64,000 nt of DNA from a virus (IMGVR_UViG_3300041964_000072:32001-96000), one strand, 5' to 3'. Positions 35,071-53,351 are shown, numbered from the stretch's first letter. Notes: generated by a model not told the origin, from the letters alone. Numbers and translations: made by a program.

Positions 35071-35090
35071 TGAATTAAACCGTGCAGTGA

Positions 35091-35342
35091 TTAAGGCTGG
35101 GAATCTTTGAGGTTGTCTAGTGTATCAATGAAGTCGGGAAGAGGGCTTTCGAGGAGTATCATGAATTGCTCGATTGTCGCATGAGTGGCAGCATACCAGG
35201 CGTTCTGAATTTTTTCTGGGAGTTCTTTCCAATCAGGCATAGGGAGTCCTTGATAATTCTTTCCACCTGTTTTTATACCATAAGCAAAATAAGCAGTAGG
35301 AGCAATAACACGAGCAAGATGTTGTAGATCAATTGCATTCAT
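35091..35342 (-). CDS. Conserved-looking phage hypothetical protein
   Basis: AYFAY...KNYQGLPMPDWKELPEKIQNAWYAA pattern. Confidence 0.6.
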   Translation of the reverse strand: MNAIDLQHLARVIAPTAYFAYGIKTGGKNYQGLPMPDWKELPEKIQNAWYAATHATIEQFMILLESPLPDFIDTLDNLKDSQP

Positions 35343-35476
35343 AAGAATGGGTAAAGGATTAGAGGTTTTTGTCTAATCTTCTATTCCATTCAAAAATATT
35401 CTTGGTAGAATATGAGGAGATAACGATAATGACTTTCTTTTTAATCGTAACAAGTATTTAGCTAGGCACCTGGCAT

Positions 35477-35698
35477 TTATCTGTTACGGTTTTCTTTTTG
35501 CACTTTTCTGTAGGTCAATATCTGCGTTTCAAGTCGGTCAATCCATACTTGGAATCCACCCCGTTCTGCCTCAAAAAGGATTTTTTCGTTATCTGAGAGA
35601 TTGGGGTTATTGAATTGAATTCTGTTAAATTCCATACCTCGTTTAAGCAAACTCCATTGACGCAGAGCGGTACGGTATTGATCATCATTTTTGAGCAT
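35477..35698 (-). CDS. Small helical hypothetical protein
   Basis: 73 aa, MLKNDDQYRTAL... Confidence 0.55.
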   Translation of the reverse strand: MLKNDDQYRTALRQWSLLKRGMEFNRIQFNNPNLSDNEKILFEAERGGFQVWIDRLETQILTYRKVQKENRNR

Positions 35699-35727
35699 AA
35701 TAAGGAGTAGTTATAAAGGACAGTTCT

Positions 35728-35967
35728 ATGCATAATAGTGACGCAAATTGCTGGACATTACCAGGCATCCTTAACTCTTTCAGGCAGGATGCAGCCGACT
35801 TACGATCGAAGGGAGAACATAAAGCTGCCAATGTTGTTGATCAAGTCGTGCAACAACTTGAGGCGGAAATGAAGGAAATCGAAAAACAGCCCTTTATTCC
35901 TAGTGAGGTATCCGCTGCTCAGTTACGAGTATGGGCAGCAGAACACAGGCGCAAGCGTAAGGCGTAG
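35728..35967 (+). CDS. Small hypothetical protein
   Basis: 79 aa ORF upstream of the att-like region. Confidence 0.55.
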   Translation: MHNSDANCWTLPGILNSFRQDAADLRSKGEHKAANVVDQVVQQLEAEMKEIEKQPFIPSEVSAAQLRVWAAEHRRKRKA

Positions 35968-36002
35968 TGCCTTATTACGACCTAGAGTAAGGTACTTGTA
36001 GG

Positions 36003-36286
36003 GTAAGTTAATTTTTAAGTAAAGGTAAGTAAAGGATGTTTGGTGTATGGAACCAAAAGTTTTGATGGACACCTCTTAAGAAAGTAAGTAAAATGTAAGT
36101 AAATGATTTTCTTAGTTTTTGTAATCCTTGTGTAGTGAGTAATTCAGGACATAAAGGGTTGTTGCGTGAAAACTCCCTTGACATCTGATGTCTCTCAAAG
36201 TACGATTCTTACGTTCACTCAGTTCAAGATTCATAGTTCCTAACTAGGAGTTTTAGTCCTGAGTAAGTAAAAAGTAAGTAAGTAAA
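36003..36286 (+). repeat. Clustered GTAAGTAAA direct repeats (attP-like integrase arm sites)
   Basis: Exact copies at 36025, 36084, 36095, 36263 and 36278, plus variants at 36003, 36016 and 36274; non-coding and directly upstream of the integrase. Confidence 0.6.
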
Positions 36287-36293
36287 CGAGAAG

Positions 36294-37787
36294 TTGAGGA
36301 GCTGTCCACTGGTGCAAGCTACTACAATGGATACAAAAGCTTTGACAGTATACAACTACACACCACCTAGAACAGATGGGAGTTTTATGGCTGCTCAAGC
36401 ACGGATGGAATACGATACCGCTCATCTACTGACGATTACCAACGACAGGCTTACCAAAGACGGCATCAAGTGCAAACTAGCAAAGACAGCGGGAACCATT
36501 AGTTTGCAGTTCTCAGCTCCTTTGAGAGAAGGGGACAAGCCCAGTATTGAAGGTCGCTCCACTCGCCAATATAAGTTAGGTTGCGGGTGTCAGTACAATT
36601 CCCAAGGAATTCTTCAGGCAGAAGCTTTTGCAAGGCAAGTAGGACAAAGAATCCTTTATAAGGATTTCACTTGGGAATGGTTCGACCATATTGTAGGAAA
36701 ATCTCCTACTGCTACCCAGGAGAAAACCATAGCCGATTGGCTCAAAAGCTTTGAGGAGTTTTTCTGGGCGACTCACCCGAATAACGATAAATCAAAATTC
36801 CTTTGGTACAAGGACTATCAAGCCTACCTTAAGTTTCCTAAGACAGATATTCCTTTTTCCTTGGAAGTGTTAAAAGAATTCCTACTTAACACCACTCCAA
36901 ATACAGTATCGAGAAGGCGACAACTGCGTACCCTCCGAATGCTTATCGATCATGCTGGGTTATTGCCGAAGTACAAAGACTTCATAGACAGTAACCTGAA
37001 AAAAACCAAGGTCAAGGCAAAAGAAAAATACATCCCCTCTCCGGACGAAATTGAGCAAGATATTTTGAGGATTAAGCCAGGACGTAAAGCCCCTAAATAC
37101 ACCCATGAGAATACGATGCGTTGGAAATACGTTCTTGCTTTACAAGCTACTTATGGCTTGCGGATACACGAGTGCTGGAATATAGAAAATCTGTATGCCC
37201 CTGCCATGTTTAAGGGGAAAGAGATTCCAGCCCTTAGCGATCCGGAGAATACCAAAAACCTATTAGTAGTAGGAGAAAACACTAAGACAGGATCAAGGCT
37301 TGCTATGCCTATATCTCCAGTCGGAAAGGATTGGGTAGTTTTATTTGACCTGAAGAACATAAAACTACCAGAGCTTTCGATTAACCGAGAACATAAAGCC
37401 GTAGCCTATGCATCAGCCGTTTCTCAGTTCATGAATCGCCATAATTTCAAATACACATCACATGCTCTGAGACATGCCTGTAACCATACCGCACGCACCC
37501 AAGGCATTGGTGTTCATGCCATTTCGTTAAGCCTAGGGCACACCGAGGAGATGAATAGTACTGTATACAAACAGTTTATCCGACCAGAGATGATTATTGA
37601 TACCTTAGAAAAAGGAGTGGAAGCACAAGTACTTAATGCTTCTATCCCTAAGATTCCCTTGGAGCAAGCATTCTCACAGATTAGCTCCAGATACGCTTCT
37701 GACCCTGAGAAGTTTACGATCGCATCTGAGGTTTTGTCCTTAATCTACGGACTACCTTCTTCTCCCGAAGAGGTGTCAGTTACCTAA
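36294..37787 (+). CDS. int: Tyrosine recombinase/integrase, cyanobacterial XisA/XisC-like (probable start ATG 36327)
   Basis: Catalytic YGLRIHE (R), KTG (K), HALRH, LGH and TVY; N-terminal NDRL...ISLQF...RQYKLG...AEAFARQVG...FTWEW arm domain pattern. Confidence 0.9.
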   Translation: MRSCPLVQATTMDTKALTVYNYTPPRTDGSFMAAQARMEYDTAHLLTITNDRLTKDGIKCKLAKTAGTISLQFSAPLREGDKPSIEGRSTRQYKLGCGCQYNSQGILQAEAFARQVGQRILYKDFTWEWFDHIVGKSPTATQEKTIADWLKSFEEFFWATHPNNDKSKFLWYKDYQAYLKFPKTDIPFSLEVLKEFLLNTTPNTVSRRRQLRTLRMLIDHAGLLPKYKDFIDSNLKKTKVKAKEKYIPSPDEIEQDILRIKPGRKAPKYTHENTMRWKYVLALQATYGLRIHECWNIENLYAPAMFKGKEIPALSDPENTKNLLVVGENTKTGSRLAMPISPVGKDWVVLFDLKNIKLPELSINREHKAVAYASAVSQFMNRHNFKYTSHALRHACNHTARTQGIGVHAISLSLGHTEEMNSTVYKQFIRPEMIIDTLEKGVEAQVLNASIPKIPLEQAFSQISSRYASDPEKFTIASEVLSLIYGLPSSPEEVSVT

Positions 37788-38566: not shown

Positions 38567-38869
38567 ATGGCTACTACCGAAAAACTGTACACAATGAATG
38601 TACCTCAAAAACTTCTCAAGAGATTTCAGCTACATTGCAGAAAGTACCATAGTGATGCTGCGACTGTGATACGAAGTTATATGCAGGAAAGAGTTGACGA
38701 TTCGGATACTCCTATAGTGGCTCACCTTGATATGGTCAAAACATTCTTTCAAAAAGTAGAGCAAGGGGAGACAGTCAAAATACAAGAAATAGTGGATATC
38801 TCTCGAATCCTTGAAATTCAACCGGAAAGCTTAATGGATTTAGTAGATAAAGCAGAGGTAAACACCTGA
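38567..38869 (+). CDS. Ribbon-helix-helix (CopG-like) regulator
   Basis: YTMNVPQKLLKRFQLHC...AATVIRSYM pattern. Confidence 0.55.
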   Translation: MATTEKLYTMNVPQKLLKRFQLHCRKYHSDAATVIRSYMQERVDDSDTPIVAHLDMVKTFFQKVEQGETVKIQEIVDISRILEIQPESLMDLVDKAEVNT

Positions 38870-38880
38870 AAATAATAGAG

Positions 38881-38906
38881 AACCGCTTCAAATCAGGAGC
38901 GGTTTT
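38881..38906. terminator. Terminator hairpin between convergent genes
   Basis: AACCGCTTC-AAATCA-GGAGCGGTT followed by TT. Confidence 0.55.
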
Positions 38907-38912
38907 CTTCTA

Positions 38913-39530
38913 TTAGCCTTCCATTTCTCTACGGGCTTTGCGAATCTCATTGAGCATGGATTGTAACTGATTGACCTTGGTTTCGCTCGATGAGTCTTCT
39001 CTTTGCTCCTCCTCAAGCTGCTGAATTTCTGCCGCAATACTCTGCACAGATCCATCATCCCCAAGTAAATTGCGTGTCATCGCATTCAACCGAGCGATTG
39101 AATCAGTAAGCATTTTAATGTTTTTGGGATCAATTCGCTGATTACCTGATTCTTCATCATGTTTCGGACTCTTCAACTCCTCTACATACTCATCCAACTG
39201 AGCATTTATCAGTTTAAATAATTTATCTGCTGCATCCAATGTTGATGAATCAAAACTAGCGCTAGCGGATAAAACATCTCGTAATTCACTGACATCCCGA
39301 CGCTCTTTAAGTTTTGATTTGACAAGCGCTTTCAGTCGGCTCCACTTACCTTTCATCGACTGCATTCTTACCGTAACTGGCGAGACATCGTACTTTTCCG
39401 CAAGTTCTTTTAATGTCGGAAATGTAGTCTTCCCAGTGCTTTCGTCTACAACTCCGTGAACGTAGTCATACCGAACTGTGTCCCAATCTTCAACCTTTTT
39501 CGTAAAATAATTATTTTTTTCTTCAGCCAT
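38913..39530 (-). CDS. terS: Probable terminase small subunit
   Basis: DWDTVRYDYVHG...TLKELAEKYDVSPVTVR...KW N-terminal HTH followed by coiled-coil helices. Confidence 0.6.
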   Translation of the reverse strand: MAEEKNNYFTKKVEDWDTVRYDYVHGVVDESTGKTTFPTLKELAEKYDVSPVTVRMQSMKGKWSRLKALVKSKLKERRDVSELRDVLSASASFDSSTLDAADKLFKLINAQLDEYVEELKSPKHDEESGNQRIDPKNIKMLTDSIARLNAMTRNLLGDDGSVQSIAAEIQQLEEEQREDSSSETKVNQLQSMLNEIRKARREMEG

Positions 39531-39736
39531 AATTGATTGAGAATTGAGCTTTTTGTTGCAGCAAGTTCAATCATTTATGCCTGTCATGTCTTCTCTTAAG
39601 TCTATCGAAAACGTGTCAAGAATGTCTCGCTAAATGTCTAATTAAAGGTCTAATTAGCGTTTAAAAAACTGTTGAAAAAACTTTTGTTTCACTGGTGAAA
39701 GTACTAGCCTGGTCGATGCCCATACATATGTACTAC

Positions 39737-39765
39737 TTGACAATCCAGGGTAACCGTGGTATTTC
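39737..39765 (+). promoter_or_regulatory. Candidate sigma70 promoter
   Basis: TTGACA-17 bp-TATTTC with TG extension; the -10 box is imperfect. Confidence 0.4.
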
Positions 39766-39882
39766 AAATAGTCTTTACTTATGAATAGAACTGCAATCTA
39801 TCAGGTATTCAGGATATATAAAATACTTATGAATCAGTAGTAAAATCACTCAAACGCATACACCACAAGGATTGTAGGATGT

Positions 39883-39911
39883 TTGCATATATTCGTATAT
39901 ATGGTTAGAGT
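39883..39911 (+). promoter_or_regulatory. Candidate sigma70 promoter driving the structured RNA and early arm
   Basis: TTGCAT (39883-39888), 17 bp spacer, TAGAGT (39906-39911). Confidence 0.55.
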
Positions 39912-39917
39912 ATGGAT

Positions 39918-40490
39918 TCCTTGATTCATTCGGGGGGTTGCGACAGAGCAAATCAAAACACGTCACATTAACGCACAACACAGATTACGTCATAACGACA
40001 CGGGTGGTTGTGAGCGTACAGACTCCTATGGGAATTTGCCGATCTGTGTAGAACTTTGAAAACTCAATAGCTGTATTTAGATGTGTTGTGTCTCGATTGT
40101 GAGCAATAGAAACGTCGTGAGATGTCTCTAACGCTTGAGAAGCGTATAACGTCTACCTGGAAACTGGTGTCAGGAATGTCTGTAACTGTCGGGCTATGGA
40201 GCCACAAGATAGCGAGTGATCTTGGAGATAGATACAGATAGCCCGGATAGGAATCCCACCAATAGACAGGTATCTAGGACGTTTAAAGCCAACGGCTGTA
40301 GGAAAGCAATCTAGTTAATAGATTGTCTGGATACATACGCCACGATGGGATCTGCACTGACTTGTAACAGCAAATTCTCTATTAACAGAGTCGAGCAAGT
40401 GCGATCGCTATGTTTAGCGGTCTATCGGGTGCAATACCCGGATCGGCTATGTGGCAGTCTTGCCGCAATCATCCACCACATAAGAGAGTC
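39918..40490 (+). ncRNA. Candidate large structured ncRNA or leader RNA
   Basis: No convincing CDS. At least 12 nested helices found by eye (e.g. 40190-97/40238-45, 40253-58/40346-51, 40270-77/40327-34, 40307-13/40319-25, 40403-10/40415-22), several with G-U pairs. BoxA-like GAACTTTGAAAACTCAATA at 40051-40069. Confidence 0.6.
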
Positions 40491-40498
40491 AAAACAAA

Positions 40499-41524
40499 AT
40501 GACCGTAGCAACAAACGGAAACGGAAACGGAACGATCAACGCTAACGATTCACAGACAACAGAGGTTAAACAACTAGAAATGATTACTACAGCAACAGAC
40601 GATAACGCGATCGCATCAACCGAGACTGAAGCGAATACATCACAGCAAGCAAACAAGCCTAGTCAAGTTAATACCGACTTCGGAGTGTTTGAGATTGTCT
40701 ATTACAGCCCTAAGCGTTGGCACTGGTATCACACCGATCGACCCAATTCGATACAGATTGCAACAAGCAAAAAAGGTTGCCAGCAAGCCATTAAAAAAGC
40801 AGTTCAAACAATGAAAGATATGTTAGCCAAGCAAGCAATCATTGATACCCCTGAAACGTCCACAGCAAGCGATCGCAGTGATGACGGTCTAACTGCTTTA
40901 CATGAGAACAAATTCATCCTGGATAGCAAGCTAGGTACTGTGGTGATTGAAAAAGTAGGTGATCAAACCTGGATCTGGTATCTGCAAGTTAAAGGCATCA
41001 AATCAGCCAAGATCGAACTGTCCAAAGATAGCTGCATTAAGGCAATTGAAGCGTTCACATCACAAACAACTCAAGCCAGTGTATCGAGTGCAGATAAGAG
41101 CGCTTTAGCGTATGCCAAGACAACGATCCGTAAGGTTACTAACGATGAACTATTCAACCTACCAGGCGATCGCTTGATTATGGACGCTACCGCAAAAGGA
41201 AGCCGTATCTACGCGATCGGTACTACAACACAGTATGAAAATGTGACAACGATCAAAGGTGATCTCTATTTCATGGTGTCTAGCAATAAGACGGCATACC
41301 TAGGAAGCATTACAGATGAAACTGTGAACATCGATCCCGGCGCTTATGAGTACCTAAACACCATGAAAGTGTTACCTGAGTCTATGAAAGCTCTACAAGC
41401 CAAGATACAGAATGCATGGTGTAAGAAAACTGTTATTAGTCGCTTCCTAGCGTCACAAAAGGCTAAGGAAAGCAAGGATATGGAATTGCAGCAAGCCAGA
41501 ATGCAAGCGATCCAAGACTGGTAA
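40499..41524 (+). CDS. Hypothetical protein with internally duplicated domain
   Basis: First gene of the + arm; two similar blocks (FGVFEIV...WHWY...SKKGCQQAI / LGTVVIE...WIWY...SKDSCIKAI). Confidence 0.8.
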   Translation: MTVATNGNGNGTINANDSQTTEVKQLEMITTATDDNAIASTETEANTSQQANKPSQVNTDFGVFEIVYYSPKRWHWYHTDRPNSIQIATSKKGCQQAIKKAVQTMKDMLAKQAIIDTPETSTASDRSDDGLTALHENKFILDSKLGTVVIEKVGDQTWIWYLQVKGIKSAKIELSKDSCIKAIEAFTSQTTQASVSSADKSALAYAKTTIRKVTNDELFNLPGDRLIMDATAKGSRIYAIGTTTQYENVTTIKGDLYFMVSSNKTAYLGSITDETVNIDPGAYEYLNTMKVLPESMKALQAKIQNAWCKKTVISRFLASQKAKESKDMELQQARMQAIQDW

Positions 41525-41547
41525 ACATCCGATATACAGCAGTTCAT

Positions 41548-41581
41548 AGGCTAGGGAGTGCGATCGCTTCCTAGCCTTTTA
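41548..41581 (+). terminator. Intrinsic terminator with HIP1 in the loop
   Basis: AGGCTAGG-GAGTGCGATCGCTT-CCTAGCCT then TTT. Confidence 0.7.
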
Positions 41582-41607
41582 TTAGTCCCTACAGTGAGGT
41601 TTTTACA

Positions 41608-42216
41608 GTGACCAGAACAAGACAATCTGAATACAAAAAACTTAAACAGTTCAGTGATTATGGACGTTATTACACTGACACTTCCCTGTCTAAGGATGTA
41701 AAGAAAGTCAGGGAAGAGAAAATTGTCGGCAATGAACCGTTACAAGGCAAGAGTCACCACGTTAAGCGTAAGTCAACGGAGGAAGGCATACACAGCCAAT
41801 ACAGGCTAGAGATATCTGATAACTGGGTGCTAATCACTATCACACCTACGATCAAAGCTCTTAAAGGTGTTAAGACAGTAACTAAGACGGCAAAGGTTAG
41901 TAAGGTAAAGACTCACAGAATAGGCAGAGTTAACAAATATGGAAAATTTTGGGAGTTGCCTACCTTAGACAAAATTGCCAAGCTAGTACAGCAAAAGCCA
42001 AAAGTACTTATTGAGCAATGTCAAGACGTTGTTAAACAGTTCTACCAGTCTAGAGAGATCCCGCAATACACCACGAAAGAAGTGTTAGAAAAAATAGGCG
42101 ATCGCTATCAGACGGCTATCGTCACTCACAAGGTAGAGGTGCCAGAGGTGCCATATAAACCGACATACAAAACACTGAAAACAGCGGATACCACGGTTAA
42201 ACTCAGAACCGTCTAA
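41608..42216 (+). CDS. Basic hypothetical protein
   Basis: 202 aa, GTG start after GAGG. Confidence 0.7.
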   Translation: MTRTRQSEYKKLKQFSDYGRYYTDTSLSKDVKKVREEKIVGNEPLQGKSHHVKRKSTEEGIHSQYRLEISDNWVLITITPTIKALKGVKTVTKTAKVSKVKTHRIGRVNKYGKFWELPTLDKIAKLVQQKPKVLIEQCQDVVKQFYQSREIPQYTTKEVLEKIGDRYQTAIVTHKVEVPEVPYKPTYKTLKTADTTVKLRTV

Positions 42217-42236
42217 CCTACCCTAAAAGCTCTATC

Positions 42237-42339
42237 CTCCCTAGTCCCTTGGCTAGGGAGTTTTTTTGTGTCTGTACATCCTGCTATCCTCATCCCCGCA
42301 AGTTTTCCCCTAGTCCACCACGGCTAGGGGATTTTTTTT
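42237..42339 (+). terminator. Tandem pair of near-identical intrinsic terminators
   Basis: CTCCCTAGTC-CCTT-GGCTAGGGAG-T7 (42237-42267) and TCCCCTAGTC-CACCAC-GGCTAGGGGA-T8 (42306-42339). Confidence 0.8.
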
Positions 42340-42350
42340 GCTATTTGATT

Positions 42351-42382
42351 CGGTTTACCGATGTATAGTATTCGGTTAACCG
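42351..42382. promoter_or_regulatory. Pair of palindromic operator-like sites flanking a TATAGT box
   Basis: CGGTTTACCG (42351-42360) and CGGTTAACCG (42373-42382), both preceded by ATT. Confidence 0.45.
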
Positions 42383-42412
42383 TACAAGCTAATTTTTTTT
42401 TTAGGGTTTCCT

Positions 42413-42565
42413 ATGCAATCCAAGACTAAACGATTTATCGCGTATCTTTCCGATGGCTCCAGGATCATCCTATCTGGCAATGACATTCAGGATGCCTGGA
42501 ACAGTGTTGAGATGATTTTTTTTGAGCGGTGCGATCGCATCACCTCTATTTTGTGTATTCGCTAA
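42413..42565 (+). CDS. 50 aa hypothetical protein (not in ORF track)
   Basis: MQSKTKRFIAYLSDGSRIILSGNDIQDAWNSVEMIFFERCDRITSILCIR*. Confidence 0.45.
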   Translation: MQSKTKRFIAYLSDGSRIILSGNDIQDAWNSVEMIFFERCDRITSILCIR

Positions 42566-42579
42566 TAGGAGATAAGACC

Positions 42580-42807
42580 ATGACAACTTTTATCGCAGAT
42601 CAGATCCCTACTCAAGACGAGTTCAAAGCGCTTGCTGAGGGCTACTACATCCAGACGGTAGAGCGGAAAGACAAAATGATGTGGTTTTCTTCGGCATACC
42701 AAATCAATCTCTTCCTTCTACCCTACTTTTTGCAGTACATCACATCCCAAGGTAAGCAGTTCAAAATCACACACAACAACCAACAAATTGCAGTAGAGAT
42801 TTTATAA
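42580..42807 (+). CDS. Hypothetical protein
   Basis: ATG after AGGAG; co-oriented array. Confidence 0.65.
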   Translation: MTTFIADQIPTQDEFKALAEGYYIQTVERKDKMMWFSSAYQINLFLLPYFLQYITSQGKQFKITHNNQQIAVEIL

Positions 42808-42809
42808 CC

Positions 42810-43109
42810 ATGAAAACGGTTACATTCAGGGAGCTTGCAGAATTTTCCTATGCCCTCAAGCCAGATTTTGAGGGCTACCTATCTTCTCTGGGGATTCCCT
42901 CAGAGGGCTACATACGAACGTGGATCGAGTGGAAATTGCTGAGGCGTATCTTTCCAGGGGTACGATATAGCAACGGCTCCATAGGGTTCGTAGATGCCTG
43001 TGGTGACAGGTATGCGATCGCTGTGGAGGTGCGTGTATTTGAAGCCAAGCGGTATATCTCCAGATCCTCTATGAGGCGTATCCTGGAGATATCCGGACTC
43101 ATAAAGTAG
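42810..43109 (+). CDS. Hypothetical protein
   Basis: Tightly packed + strand ORF. Confidence 0.65.
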   Translation: MKTVTFRELAEFSYALKPDFEGYLSSLGIPSEGYIRTWIEWKLLRRIFPGVRYSNGSIGFVDACGDRYAIAVEVRVFEAKRYISRSSMRRILEISGLIK

Positions 43110-43114
43110 ATTGA

Positions 43115-43333
43115 ATGCACATTATTTTTAGACCATCAAAAGGGAAGATATATCTGTATCTGTCCAAACGAGAGATCTCAGAAATCTCTTCCCAAGCGTC
43201 TGAACACGACACAGTTTTTGTGTCTTCATCCGAGCTGGGGTATCAGGTATACAAACAGCTCGACTTAATTTTTCATGACCGTGCGGAAATGGAAAGAATG
43301 ATTGTAGTAGAAACAGACGAGTTCCCAGGATAA
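43115..43333 (+). CDS. Hypothetical protein
   Basis: Tightly packed + strand ORF. Confidence 0.6.
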   Translation: MHIIFRPSKGKIYLYLSKREISEISSQASEHDTVFVSSSELGYQVYKQLDLIFHDRAEMERMIVVETDEFPG

Positions 43334-43337
43334 ATAA

Positions 43338-43853
43338 ATGAACATCACAGTAAAAGCAATCAAACGAAACAGTACGAGCATTTCTCTACAGGTATTTTGT
43401 GAGGACAAGCTACTAGGTGCGATCGCAGTCATGGACAAGGGATTTCAGGTAAATGCTACCGAAAATCGGATGCATGATCGACCAGAATTCCCCCATGCAG
43501 CAGATGCGATCGCGTGCTTGCTCCAGAGAAAGAAATCATTGATCGACGGCATTGTGCGGCGAATGGAGGAGGAAGAACGATACAAGATGCCTGAAGTGCA
43601 TCCCCTTGTTATTGCTGTATATCAACGCTATTACCCACATAAGCCAGTGGTATTAAGGAGATATGACGACCTGTACTTAACCGACGATGATTTACTTCCT
43701 TGGTGGAAGGATAACAATGATCACTGGTTTTCCTCGGATTCCTCTGCGCCTAGAATCCCTTGGAGTTTTGTAGGTCTAGCCTGTATGTTGCCTTCTCATG
43801 AGGCAGAGCTGCAAGCTAGGCAAGACATCCCCGTAGAGATTGTTATCGACTGA
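43338..43853 (+). CDS. Hypothetical protein
   Basis: 171 aa, tightly packed. Confidence 0.7.
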   Translation: MNITVKAIKRNSTSISLQVFCEDKLLGAIAVMDKGFQVNATENRMHDRPEFPHAADAIACLLQRKKSLIDGIVRRMEEEERYKMPEVHPLVIAVYQRYYPHKPVVLRRYDDLYLTDDDLLPWWKDNNDHWFSSDSSAPRIPWSFVGLACMLPSHEAELQARQDIPVEIVID

Positions 43854-44304
43854 TAGGATGACCCTACACGCGATCGCTATAGCGGGAAGCTGCTCATCAA
43901 ATGGGTGCGATCGCATTGAGAGGATTTTGTTATTCACCTCTCTTTTTGAACAGATGACAAAACATTCAGACTTACTACCAGGCTTGCTCGAAGATAAAAA
44001 TTTGTTTCAGCAATGGTTAGCACAACAACCAGCAGAAACAGTAGTAGGAGAAACCTGTAGCGGATATAACTGCCCCATTGCAAAATATCTAAATCAGCAT
44101 GGGGTTGAAAAAGTAGATGTTGCAAGTGACTGCATTATTTACCCTGACCCGGATCGATTGGAATATGTATTACCCGAATGGGTAAAAGAGTTCATCGCTC
44201 AATGTGACGCGATAGATTCCAGGAACATCGTTCCCGTAACTGCGAGTGAAGCGATCGCTATCCTGGAGAGCGAGACTCTTATGAACGTCTACAGTGCAAC
44301 TTAG
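43840..44304 (+). CDS. Hypothetical protein, CPI-motif family (paralog of 55595-56203)
   Basis: FQQWL...VGETCSGYNCPIAKYL...LPEWVKEFI. Confidence 0.65.
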   Translation: MLSTDRMTLHAIAIAGSCSSNGCDRIERILLFTSLFEQMTKHSDLLPGLLEDKNLFQQWLAQQPAETVVGETCSGYNCPIAKYLNQHGVEKVDVASDCIIYPDPDRLEYVLPEWVKEFIAQCDAIDSRNIVPVTASEAIAILESETLMNVYSAT

Positions 44305-44328
44305 ACCGCTATAAGAAAACAATGAAAA

Positions 44329-44886
44329 GTGAGGAAGATTAAAATGCGTAAAAGTAAAGTGCAACATTTCGCTCTTGTACAGCACACGGCATACACACGT
44401 AATAGTGATCTCAGGTTCAGTGAGGCTGTAGAGGTAGGAGCAGTTTGTCTGGATGAAGATCAACTCAGAACATTACGCGATCGCAAGGTGTTTGTCACCA
44501 AGAGTTATAAGGAGTGTGATGAGGAAGCCGTAAAAGAAAACTACCCAGATCCTAAAAGTATTTCTTGGTATCCAAAGGCTCTTGGGAACTTTACCCGGAT
44601 CAAGGGGTTTGGTGACACTATGTTTTACATACCTCCAAACTCTCACACAGAAGATCGCCCAAATCCTATAGCCATTTTCTACGCAGACGGAAAGCTGCTA
44701 TTCAGTGACAAGGATTCTGAGGGTAAACCCCTCTCCCTTGCTACCTATGATGATTACATGAGATGCGATCGCACAAAAATCAACATCTGTGAAGATTTTT
44801 CTCCTAATGACATCATCCAGCTAGAGGAAGGGCTGTTTATCCTTGATGATGAAGTCTTTCCAATCACCTTTTGTCAAATTTCATAA
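44329..44886 (+). CDS. Hypothetical protein
   Basis: 185 aa ORF in array. Confidence 0.7.
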   Translation: MRKIKMRKSKVQHFALVQHTAYTRNSDLRFSEAVEVGAVCLDEDQLRTLRDRKVFVTKSYKECDEEAVKENYPDPKSISWYPKALGNFTRIKGFGDTMFYIPPNSHTEDRPNPIAIFYADGKLLFSDKDSEGKPLSLATYDDYMRCDRTKINICEDFSPNDIIQLEEGLFILDDEVFPITFCQIS

Positions 44887-44945
44887 CCTCTTCAATACAG
44901 CAATGCCGTCCTAGATTTTCCTAAGACGGCTGCTCGTGATTTTGG

Positions 44946-45194
44946 ATGGAAAGATACGGAAAAAGAAGCGTAGGAGGCAACATGAGCGGTAATGAATGGA
45001 AGAAATTTTCTAGGACAGCTTCCGATCCTACTGGAAGCATCTCTGCTGTGATGACCGCTGATCAACTCATCCAGCAACATCCAGAGCTGAAATCTCTCAT
45101 AGAATCTCTTCAACAAGAAGAGAGCTTCGAGATGAAGTACTCCAAGGCAGATCCCATCGTTATCGAAATCAAGTCCCTTTGGGAAATCTGGTAG
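44946..45194 (+). CDS. Hypothetical protein
   Basis: 82 aa ORF in array. Confidence 0.55.
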   Translation: MERYGKRSVGGNMSGNEWKKFSRTASDPTGSISAVMTADQLIQQHPELKSLIESLQQEESFEMKYSKADPIVIEIKSLWEIW

Positions 45195-45257
45195 ATGCGA
45201 TCGCACGATGCTGCTCCCACGGTGTTAGAGAGGGAATCAATCAAGTAAGGAGTATTT

Positions 45258-45491
45258 ATGACATCAGAGCAGCGTCAAGAAATGATAGACAGAATGACGG
45301 CACAAGATATCAAAATCATACTAGGATGGGTATCCGAAAATGATTATGAATTTCTTGTAACCGTACTGCAAGGAGAAGGTTTTAAGCCGTATAATCAACT
45401 ATCGGATGATCAAGTCAAACAAGAATATGATGGTCGAGAAGGTTTGCATGACATTGATGTAGAAAGTATATACCAGAAAATCAAGTCATAG
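45258..45491 (+). CDS. Hypothetical protein
   Basis: AAGGAG RBS, 77 aa. Confidence 0.65.
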   Translation: MTSEQRQEMIDRMTAQDIKIILGWVSENDYEFLVTVLQGEGFKPYNQLSDDQVKQEYDGREGLHDIDVESIYQKIKS

Positions 45492-45511
45492 AAGTCGAGT
45501 CATTGAGAAAT

Positions 45512-45538
45512 AACCCGTATCTTATAGGTGCGGGTTTT
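45512..45538 (+). terminator. Intrinsic terminator
   Basis: AACCCGTATC-TTATA-GGTGCGGGTT then TT. Confidence 0.55.
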
Positions 45539-45559
45539 GTTGTAAATAAGGAGATCTCG

Positions 45560-45928
45560 ATGGAAGAATACTCGAAAGAATTGCACGGAAAAAGCTTACT
45601 GAACTCTCTAGGCACTCCAGAAGGAACTTATACCGGAGAATACTACCTAGAAGCGGGTATTTACTGGTATAAGGTAGAGGACAATAACGGTAATATGTTC
45701 GAGACAGAGGAGTGTCCTTTAATCCTTCACAAGCCTTTGTTAGATTCAATACCTCCCTACGAAAGAGATGATAGCAAGGAAGATATTACTTTTTTGATTC
45801 CGCCCACAATGTCGGGATGGCATGAGAGAGATGATAAGAAGATTGTCTATGTATGTGTCGATAAGGCGGGAGGATGGTATACCAAATTTGTGGTAGATAG
45901 TTGGAGTAAAACATGGTACATACCCTAG
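45560..45928 (+). CDS. Hypothetical protein
   Basis: AAGGAG RBS before ATG 45560. Confidence 0.65.
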   Translation: MEEYSKELHGKSLLNSLGTPEGTYTGEYYLEAGIYWYKVEDNNGNMFETEECPLILHKPLLDSIPPYERDDSKEDITFLIPPTMSGWHERDDKKIVYVCVDKAGGWYTKFVVDSWSKTWYIP

Positions 45929-46007
45929 GAAAAACAATGATCAGAGTAGTTAACTTATCCACAAAGGAGGAGAAGTATTACGATCTTCCTCCTGAGAAGG
46001 AGAAGTC

Positions 46008-46217
46008 ATGAACAATAAAAGCCCTTTACAGCAACTCGTCCAAAAACTCACATGGAAACAGTGTGAAAATATCCTTGAAAACCACGGGTTCGCTGTGTAC
46101 GAAAGTGAATCACTGGGGAAACTGCGACAAGCTGTAAAGATAAACATCAAGGATGGAACCATTTCCCAGCAATATGTTGAGAGTATTTTGGAGGCAAGCA
46201 ATAACAATGGAAACTAA
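46008..46217 (+). CDS. Hypothetical protein
   Basis: AAGGAG RBS, 69 aa. Confidence 0.6.
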   Translation: MNNKSPLQQLVQKLTWKQCENILENHGFAVYESESLGKLRQAVKINIKDGTISQQYVESILEASNNNGN

Positions 46218-46518
46218 GCTGATTCATGTCCCACCCTTGTCTGTGGTGGACGTTCTCTATCCAGGCAATCCGGAGTTTGGTTCAATCCACGCTCAAACCT
46301 TTGTCCTTACCTCGGAAGAGTTTTACTCAATTAAGGACAGGGATGATGTGATCAAATTCATAGTCTCCAAAGGCTTTGAAAATTACCTGGATTTTAGGGC
46401 ACACATCGGGCAAGCAAGGTATAAGTGGACGCTCCCAGGCTCACAAGAAAAGTGGATGGAAGCTAAATTTGGTGATCGGTTTGACTACGAATTCGATGTA
46501 GATGAGGCTGAAGAGTAA
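46207..46518 (+). CDS. Hypothetical protein
   Basis: ATG overlapping the previous ORF end. Confidence 0.65.
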   Translation: METKLIHVPPLSVVDVLYPGNPEFGSIHAQTFVLTSEEFYSIKDRDDVIKFIVSKGFENYLDFRAHIGQARYKWTLPGSQEKWMEAKFGDRFDYEFDVDEAEE

Positions 46519-46715
46519 TGGAGGCAAAAACCATATACAGCTACGCAATCCTCCAAATATCTATCAGGAAATTCGCTGTGATTCAAACCAGCGGGGGTCT
46601 TACGGGAGTAACATCTGTGTGGGAAATAAAATCCCGTCACGGATCGCATTTCAAAGCAGTAGAAGCATTACAGCAGATTCAGGAGAGACAAAATGGCTCA
46701 AATAATGGGATATAA
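46518..46715 (+). CDS. Hypothetical protein
   Basis: TAATG coupling to the previous ORF. Confidence 0.6.
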   Translation: MEAKTIYSYAILQISIRKFAVIQTSGGLTGVTSVWEIKSRHGSHFKAVEALQQIQERQNGSNNGI

Positions 46716-47109
46716 ACACCTAGAAATGCCTATCGTCAAGATAGATGACAGGGAATACGCCGTAGGGACAGAAGAACAGGCAGACAATGCGGCAAGAGAG
46801 GCAATAGAAGGATCTTTATCATCCTTTGAGCCGTACTTTATATCCCAACACTCCACAATCCAGGACTATGAGATTATAAATGCAATAAAAAAAGAAGGTA
46901 CAAAAGCTACACGCAAAATCATTACCGACATAGACGCTTTTGTTGATAACGCTCTGAGCCTAAGTAATCGGGGGGAATTTCTTTCCCCTGTCAACGGTAC
47001 AGAGGAAACTCTTGCAAGCATAGACGATGATGTTGCCCAAGAGATTGCGACGGTTTTAGGTATCCCAGAGGATAAGTGGAAGGATACCTTTGTGTATCAA
47101 GTTCAGTAA
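46693..47109 (+). CDS. Conserved-looking phage hypothetical protein
   Basis: EYAVGTEEQAD...DIDAFVDNALS...RGEFLS..NG.EE pattern. Confidence 0.65.
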   Translation: MAQIMGYKHLEMPIVKIDDREYAVGTEEQADNAAREAIEGSLSSFEPYFISQHSTIQDYEIINAIKKEGTKATRKIITDIDAFVDNALSLSNRGEFLSPVNGTEETLASIDDDVAQEIATVLGIPEDKWKDTFVYQVQ

Positions 47110-47140
47110 TTTTAGGACAGGTATTGTAGAACGGTAATAG

Positions 47141-47169
47141 TCCCGCTTCTTCCTTGAGGCGGGATTTTT
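47141..47169 (+). terminator. Intrinsic terminator
   Basis: TCCCGCTTC-TTCCTT-GAGGCGGGA-T5. Confidence 0.7.
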
Positions 47170-47194
47170 GTACAACTAGCAACACACAATCTCC

Positions 47195-47743
47195 ATGAAC
47201 AAGGAAGATCAGATCCCAAGCATGTTAAAGAAGTCAAGTCTTTTTGGAGTAAATTTCTACAAGGCATTACATAAAAAATGCTCTGCAATGGAAGATACAG
47301 ACATAGCGATGATCGGACATCATCAGTTAAATAAAAAGACTGGTGAATTAGTCTACGTCAATCATGCTTCCTTCCCAATACACGCTCTTAATCAGGCGAT
47401 AGCAATCTTTAATCAATGTGCTACCCATACGACCTACTATCCAGAAACGGAAGAGTGGAAAGCCATCTGTCAAGTGTTGGTGACAAATACCAAGGAAAAA
47501 CAACTGATCGTAAAGCAGTACTTCATAGCTCCTGAAACCAACCGCTGCATAAAGGTGGATTTAGTGACATTGAATGGAGATACAGAATACCTCGTGATTG
47601 ACTACGGTATTCCTCATAGGATGAACTGCCATATCCAGGCAAGCGATCTTTTGGTAGATAAGGAGTTTTGTATTCAGTTGGACAAGGACTTTCCTACACC
47701 TATCAGGGAAGCACGTATTGGTAAATTCTTGGCAACACACTAG
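47195..47743 (+). CDS. Hypothetical protein
   Basis: 182 aa ORF in array. Confidence 0.7.
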   Translation: MNKEDQIPSMLKKSSLFGVNFYKALHKKCSAMEDTDIAMIGHHQLNKKTGELVYVNHASFPIHALNQAIAIFNQCATHTTYYPETEEWKAICQVLVTNTKEKQLIVKQYFIAPETNRCIKVDLVTLNGDTEYLVIDYGIPHRMNCHIQASDLLVDKEFCIQLDKDFPTPIREARIGKFLATH

Positions 47744-47751
47744 GAGGCAGC

Positions 47752-48033
47752 ATGACGTTTGAAGAGGCTAGAAGACACGTAATGTATGTGGTAGATGATT
47801 CCCTAAATGGACGACGTTTAGGCGAGGATATTCATGCTGTAGTTAAACCCCAAAGTGTTCTTGTTGGATGGCACTGGGAACCAAATTTTATGTTTGTGGC
47901 GATTAATTCCTACCTGGGGGTGACTATCACGAATGAAGAGGCAGAAGAACTCGCAACGGATTATTTAAGGGAAATCCACTGGTTTACTGACTCAGAAGCC
48001 AACAACGCATCAGACTACATTATTAGAGGTTAA
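47752..48033 (+). CDS. Hypothetical protein
   Basis: AGGAGG RBS. Confidence 0.7.
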   Translation: MTFEEARRHVMYVVDDSLNGRRLGEDIHAVVKPQSVLVGWHWEPNFMFVAINSYLGVTITNEEAEELATDYLREIHWFTDSEANNASDYIIRG

Positions 48034-48037
48034 TTCA

Positions 48038-48436
48038 ATGGCAAATTTCAACCTTTTGCTCAACACCATTAGCGTCGAAGTGGAATTTTTAGGGAGCAGT
48101 CTTCTCCTAGATCCTGTAGGGGAAGATTCTCTTATGGAGACGCTTAAGGCTACCACTATCGACAATCATGATGTGGACGGAATAGTAGAGGCAAGACTAG
48201 ACGACGTGAAGGAAGATGGCACACACGTTACCCTTGTTGAGACTTTTTTGGATAAGTTTGAGGTATCAGAGGAGGACAGGGAAACGCTGGATGTTGGATT
48301 CTCCATCACAATAGAAATGCCTGGAATTGAGTATGTAGAATGGATGCTCATGCGCTACGGATGCATGATGCACAGACAACAGGAACTCTCCAAAGAGTAC
48401 ATGGACTGGTGTTTTGATCAGGGACTTACCCAATAA
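48038..48436 (+). CDS. Acidic hypothetical protein
   Basis: 132 aa, GAGG RBS. Confidence 0.7.
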   Translation: MANFNLLLNTISVEVEFLGSSLLLDPVGEDSLMETLKATTIDNHDVDGIVEARLDDVKEDGTHVTLVETFLDKFEVSEEDRETLDVGFSITIEMPGIEYVEWMLMRYGCMMHRQQELSKEYMDWCFDQGLTQ

Positions 48437-48450
48437 CCAAGGACAATATT

Positions 48451-48810
48451 ATGAACATACCTTCAAAGAAAACCATTCAGAAATATCTTGAATGGCTGGA
48501 TGATGATCAGGTAAACAAGGTTCGGGGACTGATGGAGGGGGTGTTAGACCCAGAAGAGGTAAGTGAAGCTACTGCAAAGTGGGTACGCAGTTGCTACAAC
48601 GAACCTAGTGATAGTGAGAAAATTATGTCCGCCATAAATGACGTTATCGAGTGTCATGGAGTAGAATCCCTTTCCAGTAATGGAGATGTAGTAGCAACAT
48701 ACTGCAATACGGGAGATACTTACAAACCTACTGTTATGTATCTTGAGAAGGAGTGTCGATTCAGAATTATGTCTTGGGGAGATTATGCAGAAAAACATCC
48801 CGTAGATTAA
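48451..48810 (+). CDS. Conserved-looking phage hypothetical protein
   Basis: HGVE...YCNTGDTY..T...SWGD pattern. Confidence 0.7.
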   Translation: MNIPSKKTIQKYLEWLDDDQVNKVRGLMEGVLDPEEVSEATAKWVRSCYNEPSDSEKIMSAINDVIECHGVESLSSNGDVVATYCNTGDTYKPTVMYLEKECRFRIMSWGDYAEKHPVD

Positions 48811-48868
48811 GTTTTGATCAGGTGCATCTACTGATAAACGATTGTAAAACGAATCAAGGAGTACTCAA

Positions 48869-49363
48869 ATGTCAGGCATGGTTAAATTTTCTTTTCTTGT
48901 AGGTGATGTGAACTGGTTAGATCACGGAGGTAAGTGGATTAGTCAAAAGTTTAATAATGGAGAATTTGACTACTGGCTAGTAAAAGAGCTTCATAATACA
49001 GAGGAAAATAGGGATTTTAATACCAAATACCTCTGCACACTATCTGTAGTTGCTCCTAGTCAGTATGAGGACTTTGAGCAAGCCTTTGAATCTTGTGGCT
49101 GGGAGGTAGAGATAGAGGATCTATCCGACACAGATAAGGTAGAGATAATTCACTCTTACTCAGGTGGCTCACAAGAATGGAGTGGCACTGACAACAACTA
49201 CAGTAAGTTGTTTCGAGAATGCTTGATAGAAGCCAACCTGATTACAACGCTGTTACTTCAAGCTTATCTATATAGGCAGAAAAATGCACTCGGAGACAAT
49301 GGATGGAACAAGCTTAAGGGCACAAGTGCTATAGACTCACTTCGATCAAACACTAATAAGTAA
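48869..49363 (+). CDS. Hypothetical protein
   Basis: AAGGAG RBS, 164 aa. Confidence 0.7.
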   Translation: MSGMVKFSFLVGDVNWLDHGGKWISQKFNNGEFDYWLVKELHNTEENRDFNTKYLCTLSVVAPSQYEDFEQAFESCGWEVEIEDLSDTDKVEIIHSYSGGSQEWSGTDNNYSKLFRECLIEANLITTLLLQAYLYRQKNALGDNGWNKLKGTSAIDSLRSNTNK

Positions 49364-49378
49364 CCAGGAAGGATTCTG

Positions 49379-49792
49379 ATGAGCAAATATTTCGATGCAA
49401 TGTACAGCAGATACGAGCGTGTACGGTCAAGACTGGTGCAAATATATGATTTTGCTGCAAGACACTATCAAACACATGAGGAGCTACTTGAAAGAAAAGG
49501 AGAGATATACAAAACTAATGATTACAAAAAACTCAGCTCGTATTATGTTGGGGCGTTTAACGAACTTAGCCGAACAAAATTGCAAGAACTATGGAGCTAC
49601 CATTTACAGAGTGGATATCTCGTAAGAGGAAAGTTCTATCCAGCTCGTGAATGTAACGAGGTTCTTTATGAGTGTGGAAAACATAACGGTATTGTTGTCT
49701 GGAAGAACTGCCCTGAAAAGATATTCAGCAAAAGTGCGGATTTTGTAGAAGAAGTTCCATCCACCAGTGAACAGTTAGAGGTAAACTCATGA
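49379..49792 (+). CDS. Hypothetical protein
   Basis: AAGGA RBS, 137 aa. Confidence 0.7.
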   Translation: MSKYFDAMYSRYERVRSRLVQIYDFAARHYQTHEELLERKGEIYKTNDYKKLSSYYVGAFNELSRTKLQELWSYHLQSGYLVRGKFYPARECNEVLYECGKHNGIVVWKNCPEKIFSKSADFVEEVPSTSEQLEVNS

Positions 49793-50127
49793 GTTACGCA
49801 AGACTGAATCGAAACGAATGGAACCAGCTCAAAGTAATCTGGGATCTGGAAAAAATTAAGGCTGATGATATGCTCTGGATTCTCAGGGACATGACCTATC
49901 TAGATTTCTGGGTAGAAGTCCTTGAGTATGACCTCTGCAATGGTTATCAGTCTGTTGCTCCAGAGGATATCGGTGCCCTTACCGATGCCTTTATCATTAC
50001 TGACGGAGAGCAATACTGGTGGGACAGCAACCACCAGATCCGCAACCCTTGGGATGATATGTACATAGATGAACCGTGCATATTATTTCCGGCAGACGCT
50101 TTACACCCAATAGGAAACCTTCCGTGA
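49789..50127 (+). CDS. Conserved-looking phage hypothetical protein
   Basis: ATGA overlap; IGALTDAFII...YWW pattern. Confidence 0.7.
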   Translation: MSYARLNRNEWNQLKVIWDLEKIKADDMLWILRDMTYLDFWVEVLEYDLCNGYQSVAPEDIGALTDAFIITDGEQYWWDSNHQIRNPWDDMYIDEPCILFPADALHPIGNLP

Positions 50128-50516
50128 ACAAAATCGTACAGACCGTAGATAATAACGAAGACTTGCGCTACGAAGTCCTCTGTCTTGTAGAACCTATCGT
50201 AATTAATTGGTACACAGACGATCCTACTTTATGGAGAGCTAACGCAAGAACGGCTGCGATCGCAGAAATAATTCCCTTAATTAGTGAGTGGTTTCTGCGT
50301 CCATCCATTCAATTCAAAATCAAAACGATTCTGGGAGGTAACATATCTTCCAAGAAATATCGGGAACTACGGGGGGAGATGTCCGATGAAGGGTTCGACT
50401 GGAATCCTATCGCTTCCCATTACGCGAACAAGAGGTACAACGAACTTTGGGCAGATGCTAACGTACCTCCTTCCCTGGTGCCAGAGTTCCTGAAAGAATG
50501 TGACGACGAAATATAA
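50124..50516 (+). CDS. Hypothetical protein
   Basis: GTGA overlap with the previous stop. Confidence 0.6.
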   Translation: MNKIVQTVDNNEDLRYEVLCLVEPIVINWYTDDPTLWRANARTAAIAEIIPLISEWFLRPSIQFKIKTILGGNISSKKYRELRGEMSDEGFDWNPIASHYANKRYNELWADANVPPSLVPEFLKECDDEI

Positions 50517-50745
50517 AAGACAAGGAGCAGCGACAATGGTTTTTGATCGTATCCGTGAATGGTTAAGGCGCAATCCTAAGCCGTCTTCATCAGATGAAAT
50601 CCCTGAATGGATGCTGGAAGAATATCGGAAAGCAATAAAGGATGCTGAGGCTTACTGTGACTCGCATCCTATTGATTGGGATGCTGTAGAGGAAATATCA
50701 GCAAGACTTGATGCAGAAGAATCGCAAGTAAATGGAGATCAGTAA
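50500..50745 (+). CDS. Hypothetical protein
   Basis: 81 aa; start may be ATG 50536 after AAGGAG. Confidence 0.6.
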   Translation: MTTKYKRQGAATMVFDRIREWLRRNPKPSSSDEIPEWMLEEYRKAIKDAEAYCDSHPIDWDAVEEISARLDAEESQVNGDQ

Positions 50746-51280
50746 AATGCCGTCGATACGTGACTCGCTTGTACCAACTCCCAAGGGCAACCGTTATTAC
50801 CCCTTCCTTTTCTACAGAGGCAAGGAAGCCTACACCTTATCCATCCAGTATGTAGGCTATGGCAGTAATGATATTCCAGCCCCTTCCGCACGTACACAGA
50901 ACCGATTTGATGTATCGTGCTGGGAAAGTCATGGAGATAAGTCAGTTACCTTTTTTCCTGCTTTTGTCATAGAAGCCATCGGCACTCACCTAGAAAACAC
51001 AGGTTCTCTCCTATGTAGCCCAGGAGAGGCGCAAGAGATTTACGATACCTTCCTGGAGTGGGACAGGAGGGAATATGTAGATCCTGGAGTACATTTTAAG
51101 TTACGGCATTATCGCCCTAATAACAGTGAAGGGTTTCCAGAAAGATATACTCTCTGGACTGTAGACTTGTACACCAACGAAGGTGAGTTTATTGGAGAGG
51201 GGAAAATCAGCGATGTTAATAAAGGAAATTTATTAGACCACATGGAGCGGGTCTGTCCTACGATTCCCATCCAAAAATAG
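50732..51280 (+). CDS. Hypothetical protein
   Basis: 182 aa ORF in array. Confidence 0.7.
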   Translation: MEISKMPSIRDSLVPTPKGNRYYPFLFYRGKEAYTLSIQYVGYGSNDIPAPSARTQNRFDVSCWESHGDKSVTFFPAFVIEAIGTHLENTGSLLCSPGEAQEIYDTFLEWDRREYVDPGVHFKLRHYRPNNSEGFPERYTLWTVDLYTNEGEFIGEGKISDVNKGNLLDHMERVCPTIPIQK

Positions 51281-51292
51281 CGCTCTTTCCAT

Positions 51293-51326
51293 TCCGGCTA
51301 GGAAACCGCCACTAGCCGGATTTTTT
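51293..51326 (+). terminator. Intrinsic terminator
   Basis: TCCGGCTAG-GAAACCGCCA-CTAGCCGGA-T6. Confidence 0.75.
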
Positions 51327-51351
51327 ATAGGCGGACACTTAGAGGTTAGAC

Positions 51352-52194: not shown

Positions 52195-52307
52195 TTAAAC
52201 ATGCGATCGCATAATATTCCATCCAGTTATGCGATCGTCTCACTATTGCATCAGTAGGATAACACAGCAAAGAGTTGTCATCAAAATAGATAAAAGGGAG
52301 TTACATC

Positions 52308-52871: not shown

Positions 52872-53194
52872 ATATGCAAGTATATACAGCTAAATGGGTG
52901 CTTGCTAAGACGATTCTGGATGACGATAAAATCATTCAGAAATTTTGCAAGGACTATGATGATGAGCCTGAGCTAACGAAAGATCCAAATGAAGCATGGT
53001 TTTGGAATAATCATGCTGCTGCAATGAATCAGCTCAAGGACATCAGGAAGCATTCTCCAGAGACGCAACTTTATCCCATAAAGGTGTTTCTCAGAGAAGT
53101 TCAAGGAAAAAAGGAGAGTAATAGCAATGGAAAGTCTCGATCAGCTAATACAAAGCGTTCCAGAAGGACATCAGTGGATAGTGTATCGAAATGA
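52865..53194 (+). CDS. Hypothetical protein
   Basis: AAGGAG RBS; ELTKDPNEAWFW motif. Confidence 0.6.
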   Translation: MLNMQVYTAKWVLAKTILDDDKIIQKFCKDYDDEPELTKDPNEAWFWNNHAAAMNQLKDIRKHSPETQLYPIKVFLREVQGKKESNSNGKSRSANTKRSRRTSVDSVSK

Positions 53195-53330: not shown

Positions 53331-53351
53331 CCCAATTCTTGCAACATTAAT

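Follow-up and report, generated by a model that had tools for sequence, protein, structure and literature searches.

Within the window analysed here, which is the whole 64,000-nt stretch, positions 39531-40498 form a 968-nt non-coding gap between two divergently oriented genes. The longest open reading frame in this gap (translation table 11) is 66 aa, and treating TAG, TGA or TAA as a sense codon opens no long frame indicative of a hidden gene, in agreement with the initial annotation, which had described the stretch as non-coding. On the minus strand, the gap is bounded by a gene encoding a 205-aa protein (38913-39530), which weakly matches a DNA-binding protein in PHROG (E 3.9e-5) and for which a search of 5.8 billion proteins returned only the query itself. 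To judge by its sequence, this product may be the repressor, or a DNA-binding protein, of the switch region. The adjoining part of the gap (39531-39917) is an AT-rich divergent control region, presumed to contain promoters and operators, with a G+C content of 0.34-0.39 compared with about 0.45 in the leader that follows it; the segment 39900-40500 is at the G+C level of coding sequence. An 11-nt direct repeat is present in the control region in two copies placed 48 nt apart (39776-39786 and 39824-39834), and an inverted partial copy can be made out by eye at 39923-39930, at the predicted transcript start. The divergent 205-aa protein may use the repeats and the inverted partial copy as operators. 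The candidate early promoter on the plus strand (39883-39911) consists of two hexamers with a 17-nt spacer, which match the consensus at 3/6 and 4/6 positions. With 7 of the 12 consensus positions, this promoter, as claimed in the initial annotation, falls below the threshold of our promoter scan, which found no sigma-70 consensus site above threshold anywhere in 38800-41700.

On the other side of the gap lies gene 1 (40499-41524, plus strand, from the ORF call), the first gene of the early operon, which encodes a strict ORFan of 341 aa that contains an internal repeat (about 45 residues). A search of 5.8 billion proteins and a full HMMER search of 1.84 billion representatives return only gene 1 itself; there is no Pfam or PHROG match, and no relative was found by tblastn against phages or in IMG/VR by protein pattern. 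The low-confidence structural neighbors of the gene 1 product in the Atlas are topoisomerase C-terminal repeats and HicB-like folds.

In the 132.7-kb IMG/VR virus record from which it comes, the window spans bases 32001-96000; CheckV puts the completeness of this record at 65%. Recognisable structural genes encode the large terminase, a head-morphogenesis protein and the major head protein. Among sequenced phages, the closest are the Pseudanabaena phages Pam2 and PA-SR01, with only 32% identity in the major capsid protein, and the best IMG/VR relative of the large terminase is also 32% identical. In addition, a 497-aa XisA/XisC-like recombinase (integrase) is encoded at 36294-37787, relatives of which were not found in GTDB genomes by protein pattern, and HIP1 sites are common in the phage genome. 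Because of these distant capsid and terminase relatives, the XisA/XisC-like recombinase, and the frequent HIP1 sites, we regard the phage as a temperate, lineage-orphan cyanophage. The second copy of the region is a single Logan contig that is 100% identical over 7 kb, and no other copy was found. Two further gaps lack both ORFs of at least 90 aa and Rfam matches. One of these (35071-36293; 1.2 kb), upstream of the integrase gene, is a candidate attP region, and the other (53195-53920; 0.7 kb) lies within the early arm. Neither the window nor the rest of the 132.7-kb record contains a tRNA gene, and Rfam gives no tRNA match in the window, so that the tRNA gene said to lie about 5 kb from the structured region does not exist.

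The most informative feature of the gap is a boxA-D4-like element on the plus strand at 40050-40070, a putative NusB/S10 site of the host type. Cyanobacterial 16S-23S spacers contain a boxA 12-mer followed by the D4 heptamer (PMC8461337), and in the Arthrospira spacer boxA and D4 are printed as one contiguous 21-mer (PMC7699214). The phage element matches the cyanobacterial rRNA spacer consensus at 18/21 positions. It is the sole site within 4 mismatches of the boxA-D4 consensus on either strand of the 132.7-kb genome, and only 1% of composition-preserving shuffles (n = 300) hold a site with 3 or fewer mismatches. The 12-nt core (40051-40062) is likewise the only exact match in the 132.7 kb to the degenerate core consensus, in which C or T is allowed at one position; against the strict published 12-mer it scores 11/12, with one C-to-T change, and one-mismatch matches to the core occur in the genome at the control frequency. 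The phage motif thus carries a T where cyanobacterial rrn copies carry C, and among the GTDB loci sampled the T variant is seen only in non-cyanobacterial rrn contexts. The boxA-like element noticed initially at 40051-69 is therefore real, being a near-exact and genome-unique copy of boxA-D4.

The predicted surroundings of the motif also resemble those in host spacers. A GTDB scan with a pattern covering both the host and the phage forms located the boxA-D4 21-mer in 55 of 80 loci, overwhelmingly in cyanobacterial spacers, each with a hairpin that ends 0-3 nt 5' of the motif. In local folds of the phage leader, the closing helix of a two-hairpin (Y-shaped) domain at 39978-40049 ends on the base preceding boxA, as in the host spacers, although its stability is no better than that of shuffled sequences (z = -0.9 to -1.6 for local folds of 39960-40075 and 39918-40050). 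This predicted domain occupies a boxB-like position. The alternative pairing of 39978-85 with 40042-49, which had been proposed to give a pseudoknot or switch, does form in these local folds. The boxA positions, about 130 nt into the predicted transcript, are mostly unpaired in the ensemble, with the exception of a weak 4-bp hairpin. A G/U-rich tract begins 10 nt past boxA (40080-40095, plus strand), in what would be a boxC-like position, and could be a NusA site by analogy with boxC. In PA-SR01, the closest relative with a sequenced genome, nothing comparable to the motif is present beyond chance one-mismatch occurrences, and its own 901-nt divergent non-coding gap (L087, 8830-9729; record positions 87829-88728) is unrelated in sequence to the gap described here. 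That PA-SR01 gap does hold an E. coli-type boxA-like word.

The element lies on the sense strand of the early arm. From 40499 to the end of the window nearly all genes are on the plus strand, and the early arm continues past the window end. No terminator is found between boxA and gene 1. Directly after gene 1, however, there is a strong intrinsic terminator (41548-41577, plus strand) composed of a 13-bp stem and a T-run, which would be the first obstacle for an antitermination signal, and gene 2 is followed by tandem intrinsic terminators (42237-42331, plus strand), in which each of two 10-bp stems precedes 7-8 T. Over the interval 40400-60399, we count 28 terminator-like hairpins against 14.9 +/- 4.4 expected, with 22 of them on the plus strand and several carrying a HIP1 site in the stem, and sigma-70-like promoters are depleted (23 against 42 expected). 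Few internal promoters combined with many sense-strand terminators is a layout that needs a promoter-proximal antitermination signal, as in phage lambda. As to the factors that such a signal would use, the phage encodes no NusB, and NusB is present in the cyanobacterial control genome. The RNA-binding domain of Rho was not found in any of the six cyanobacteria searched (five sampled genomes and the control). Further along the early arm, a 170-aa ORFan (56274-56786, plus strand) lies between near-identical terminator-like hairpins at 56217-56242 and 56794-56819 and gives a sub-threshold match to the NusG/NGN domain (13 bits, Pfam E 0.19). A phage NusG paralogue at this position would fit an antitermination theme, if true, but the ORFan has no NCBIfam or PDB relative, no homologue and no Atlas match, and its AlphaFold model, with a pLDDT of 35, is unusable.

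Computed folding of the leader gives a mixed picture. For 39918-40498, the computed energy is -186 kcal/mol on the plus strand (z = -4.0 relative to dinucleotide shuffles) and -163.8 kcal/mol (z = -2.7) on the minus strand. Sequence of this phage generally folds below its shuffles, however: 20 segments of 581 nt taken at random from the genome have a mean z of about -1.4 (sd about 1.3), and one of these reaches -4.4 where the candidate, with the same script, scores -4.5. When 300-nt minimum free energies are regressed on base composition over 1325 genome windows, the region has z values of -0.04 to -1.1 and is not an outlier. Against shuffled controls, a comparison that the initial annotation had proposed as a check, the leader thus has z values of -4.0 to -4.5, but a similar value in 1 of 20 random genome windows and an unremarkable regression z limit what this implies. 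Piecewise folds give sub-domain z values of -0.9, -0.9, -2.9, -1.8, +0.6, -2.5 and -1.6, most of which are unremarkable.

Several elements of the predicted fold, all on the plus strand, have high pair probabilities. A 5'-terminal hairpin (39919-39935) has a pair probability of 0.98 and is also present in the MFE fold, and two short hairpins at 40107-40145 have pair probabilities of 0.91-0.97. The best-defined domain of the ensemble is a long irregular stem with a branched tip (40148-40283), which contains five stacked helices with probabilities of 0.89-1.0. It is followed by a hairpin with a perfect 7-bp stem (40298-40334; probability 1.0), which was also on the initial list of helices, and by three consecutive hairpins ahead of the ribosome-binding region (40403-40467; probabilities 0.78-0.97), the first of which contains a HIP1 site (40401-08). 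A local fold of 40396-40498 has z = -2.5, and weak pairing covers the start codon of gene 1, although this region is mostly unpaired in the ensemble. The complementary segments that had been picked out by eye are all present at the stated coordinates, and most recur in the MFE or centroid fold. One of the main helices among them, 40190-97/40238-45, which does form in a local 65-nt fold (z = -2.9), is displaced in the ensemble by the competing stem 40148-40283, and the nested architecture is consequently not uniquely defined. The stretch is therefore hairpin-rich and, by these predictions, folds somewhat better than typical sequence of the same phage. Given the genome background, the ordinary sub-domains and the competing helix, however, folding energies by themselves are not enough to demonstrate an ornate RNA with a unique fold.

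Searches for known RNA families and for homologues of the leader returned nothing that identifies it. Rfam has no match at gathering score anywhere in the 64-kb window, including ROOL, GOLLD, HEARO and OLE, and relaxing the cut-off to E values up to 10 over 39400-40700 yields only two noise matches, both with E above 2. A large ornate RNA of these Rfam types, as had been suggested for the locus, therefore finds no counterpart among the covariance models. No homologue was detected by blastn against GenBank phages, 401 cyanobacterial genomes gave only chance 20-30-mers, and two exact words from the leader retrieved nothing related from JGI metagenome contigs.

The motif itself is found in other settings. 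The variant that is 20/21 identical to the phage 21-mer occurs at five sites in the 401 cyanobacterial genomes, compared with none for a reversed-pattern control. One of these sites lies immediately downstream of cas2 in Scytonema sp. NUACC26 (L209, 5272-5292), where it is part of a CRISPR-array leader, and two are located 15 nt upstream of the start codon of two psbA copies in one genome (G195; L227 and L231), with two further conserved sites making up the five. A related boxA-D4 form is located 240 nt upstream of a cluster of 20 tRNA genes in Nostoc minutum (L128, 1738-1758). We considered whether the phage had captured a CRISPR leader and rejected this idea, given that the flanks of the phage and Scytonema motifs are unrelated and no repeats are found downstream of the phage motif. 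Since the flanks are unrelated, the motif appears to be shared as a signal rather than as captured DNA. Its presence 15 nt before the psbA start codon means that it may also have uses other than antitermination.

In IMG/VR, a scan for the exact 15-nt host form found at least 116 loci, of which at least 34 are outside long open frames. These non-coding loci include recurrent families (A-D) in which a hairpin abuts the motif. Among the matches listed (L302, L297, L265 and relatives, L239 and relatives), one family heads an array of 10 tRNA genes and one hairpin-plus-boxA family is located 180 nt before a group I intron. Family A (at least 8 contigs) is a boxA-led unit of about 290 nt that is ended by an intrinsic terminator; it provides the only multi-member alignment at hand, which is nearly invariant and unrelated to the leader (39918-40498). 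When the leader was compared by blastn and nhmmer with 34 boxA-bearing non-coding regions of phages, only boxA aligned, and the phage leader is therefore an independent instance that does not belong to these sequence families. A literature search linking cyanophages with boxA found no paper. PMC7862264, citing Stringer et al. 2020 (eLife 9:e58182), describes boxA function in CRISPR leaders and non-coding RNAs, and PMC5725501 deals with the repression of protein-coding genes through boxA.

For lambda and for rRNA operons, it is textbook knowledge that boxA and Nus factors bring about processive antitermination. In E. coli the Nus-boxA complex blocks Rho, and its role in the read-through of terminators is less well established. 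Given the placement of boxA and the terminator-rich, promoter-poor operon, we think it somewhat probable that the stretch is an untranslated 5' leader of about 580 nt, belonging to the rightward early operon and carrying an rrn-type boxA for Nus-factor antitermination. Of the two readings in the initial annotation (a new or diverged class of large non-coding RNA, or a cis-acting antiterminator leader), the evidence favours the latter, in the form of a near-exact boxA-D4 that precedes, in the sense orientation, an operon rich in terminators. From the position and the motif, we infer where transcription starts, that Nus factors bind, that terminators are read through, and what role the hairpins play. 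Once boxA has been transcribed, host NusB and S10 would bind it and, jointly with NusA and NusG, would switch RNA polymerase to the fast, termination-resistant state in which it normally transcribes rRNA. The modified polymerase would then pass the intrinsic terminators located after gene 1, after gene 2, and further along the operon. Hairpins in the remaining ~430 nt would most likely be leader structure, with a part in stability, processing or translational control of gene 1, rather than a separate RNA gene. Because no Rho is present in the sampled cyanobacteria, the complex cannot act against Rho there, leaving read-through of intrinsic terminators, faster elongation, and RNA chaperoning as candidate effects in a Rho-less host. 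Against the antitermination leader we count the weak promoter, the T in place of C in the motif, the upstream helix that is no more stable than shuffles, the psbA sites, the failure to find Rho in the six cyanobacteria, and the lack of the motif in PA-SR01.

An unlikely alternative is that the locus specifies a free-standing or processed structured non-coding RNA (~430-570 nt) with its own function in infection, which is cut from the gene 1 message and for which boxA secures complete synthesis and folding, as in rRNA, tRNA, and CRISPR units. Such a role would be in keeping with the structured non-coding RNAs that boxA typically heads in hosts and other phages, with a plus-strand z of about -4 that is better than that of the minus strand, with several helices of pair probability above 0.9, and with the coding-level G+C of 39900-40500 next to a true spacer that is AT-rich. 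It is difficult to reconcile, however, with the failure to find a homologue of any kind or an Rfam match, be it at gathering score or with E values relaxed to 10; with a fold that is not an outlier against the genome background and whose sub-domains are mostly ordinary; with competition between mutually exclusive helices; and with the fact that neither a terminator nor an obvious end-to-end processing stem bounds the RNA before gene 1. The claim of a new or diverged class of large non-coding RNA thus has only the moderate folding z-score in its favour, with no Rfam match, no homologue and no nearby tRNA gene, and an ornate new class is unproven. It is rather doubtful, moreover, that the ~0.5-kb RNA downstream of boxA represents a lineage-specific case of a broader, unpublished habit of freshwater cyanophages, in which a large folded non-coding RNA would start off the infection, would depend on the host rRNA antitermination complex for transcription and chaperoning, and would have a function of its own; examples of such a function would be the sequestering of Nus or ribosome-assembly factors, or an RNA that modifies polymerase in a Rho-less host.

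The position of the gap between a gene for a DNA-binding-like protein and a divergent early operon, adjoining the XisA/XisC-like integrase module, invites the view of an ordinary long intergenic switch region that contains operators and promoters, possibly together with sites for replication or recombination; the hairpins would then arise by chance or act at the DNA level, and boxA would be a coincidence. The direct repeats upstream, folding that stays within the genome's own range, and the 1% of shuffled genomes that yield an equally good motif are all compatible with this proposal. We nevertheless think it improbable given that the motif is unique in the genome, has the right orientation and location, and agrees at 20/21 positions with a variant used in host leaders. 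Moreover, a switch region would require far less than 968 nt, and the part that bears boxA has coding-level G+C, unlike the AT-rich promoter part. Less probable again is a leader comparable to the lambda N leader that serves mainly to regulate gene 1, whether through translational masking, through processing by RNase III/E, or through a switch that responds to a ligand or protein; boxA would then be subsidiary or a site of Nus-dependent repression as for E. coli suhB. Three hairpins immediately ahead of the ribosome-binding region, weak pairing over the start codon, the alternative pairing of 39978-85 with 40042-49 in local folds, and the repression of protein-coding genes through boxA described in PMC5725501 would agree with such control, but there is no match to a riboswitch or any other cis-regulatory family, the ensemble leaves the start-codon region largely unpaired, and nothing marks gene 1 as a regulator. 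Finally, we regard it as very improbable that the stretch is the decayed remnant of a former gene. Although the G+C is coding-like and the neighboring genes are all ORFans, so that lack of homology is uninformative, the six frames are dense with stops, none of them opens under stop-codon reassignment, and the boxA motif would be left unexplained.

A host-type boxA at the head of a terminator-studded early operon in a temperate cyanophage offers a testable handle on the timing of the early to delayed-early transition in cyanophages. The same phage operon is also a handle on what the Nus-boxA complex does in a bacterium that lacks Rho. In addition, the presence of the motif in the leaders of a CRISPR array, a tRNA operon and psbA, and in phage non-coding families, suggests a wider regulon.

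Among known systems, the large ornate RNAs (ROOL, GOLLD, HEARO, OLE and raiA) share with the leader a size class of ~0.5 kb, a multi-helix prediction, and a phage location; they are distinguished from it by the covariance-model match, the tRNA neighborhood, and the family of relatives, none of which were found for the phage sequence. The hairpin-plus-boxA phage elements of IMG/VR families A-D similarly place a host-type boxA behind a hairpin and ahead of structured RNA, but share only boxA with the leader, and family A is a discrete, terminator-ended unit of ~290 nt, which the leader is not. The boxA of the CRISPR-array leader resembles the phage element in motif (20/21 with Scytonema) and in having a long untranslated stretch downstream, whereas the phage sequence has no repeats or spacers downstream and unrelated flanks. 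Like lambda nutL/nutR and the N leader, in which boxA and boxB act through N with NusA, B, E and G, the phage operon has an early boxA, a long structured leader, and a terminator right after the first gene. It differs from lambda in that the hairpin is 5' of boxA rather than 3', boxA is of the host rrn type, and the sampled host lineage has no Rho. No lambda N-like protein or arginine-rich motif was found by PHROG/Pfam in the early genes examined, and a lambda-type, N-dependent nut site was rejected on the basis that there is no N family match and the structured element is 5' of boxA. Likeness is greatest to the cyanobacterial rRNA antiterminator, consisting of the boxB hairpin, boxA, and D4 of the 16S-23S spacer in the Iteman nomenclature (PMC8461337), with which the phage shares an 18/21 motif that is mostly single-stranded in the ensemble and directly follows a predicted helix. 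The rRNA element, however, sits between rRNA genes and has a single boxB hairpin, whereas the phage motif is in the leader of a protein-coding operon, has three substitutions including the core C-to-T change, and follows a two-hairpin domain. The element would thus belong with the known boxA/Nus antitermination leaders, in an unusual host setting.
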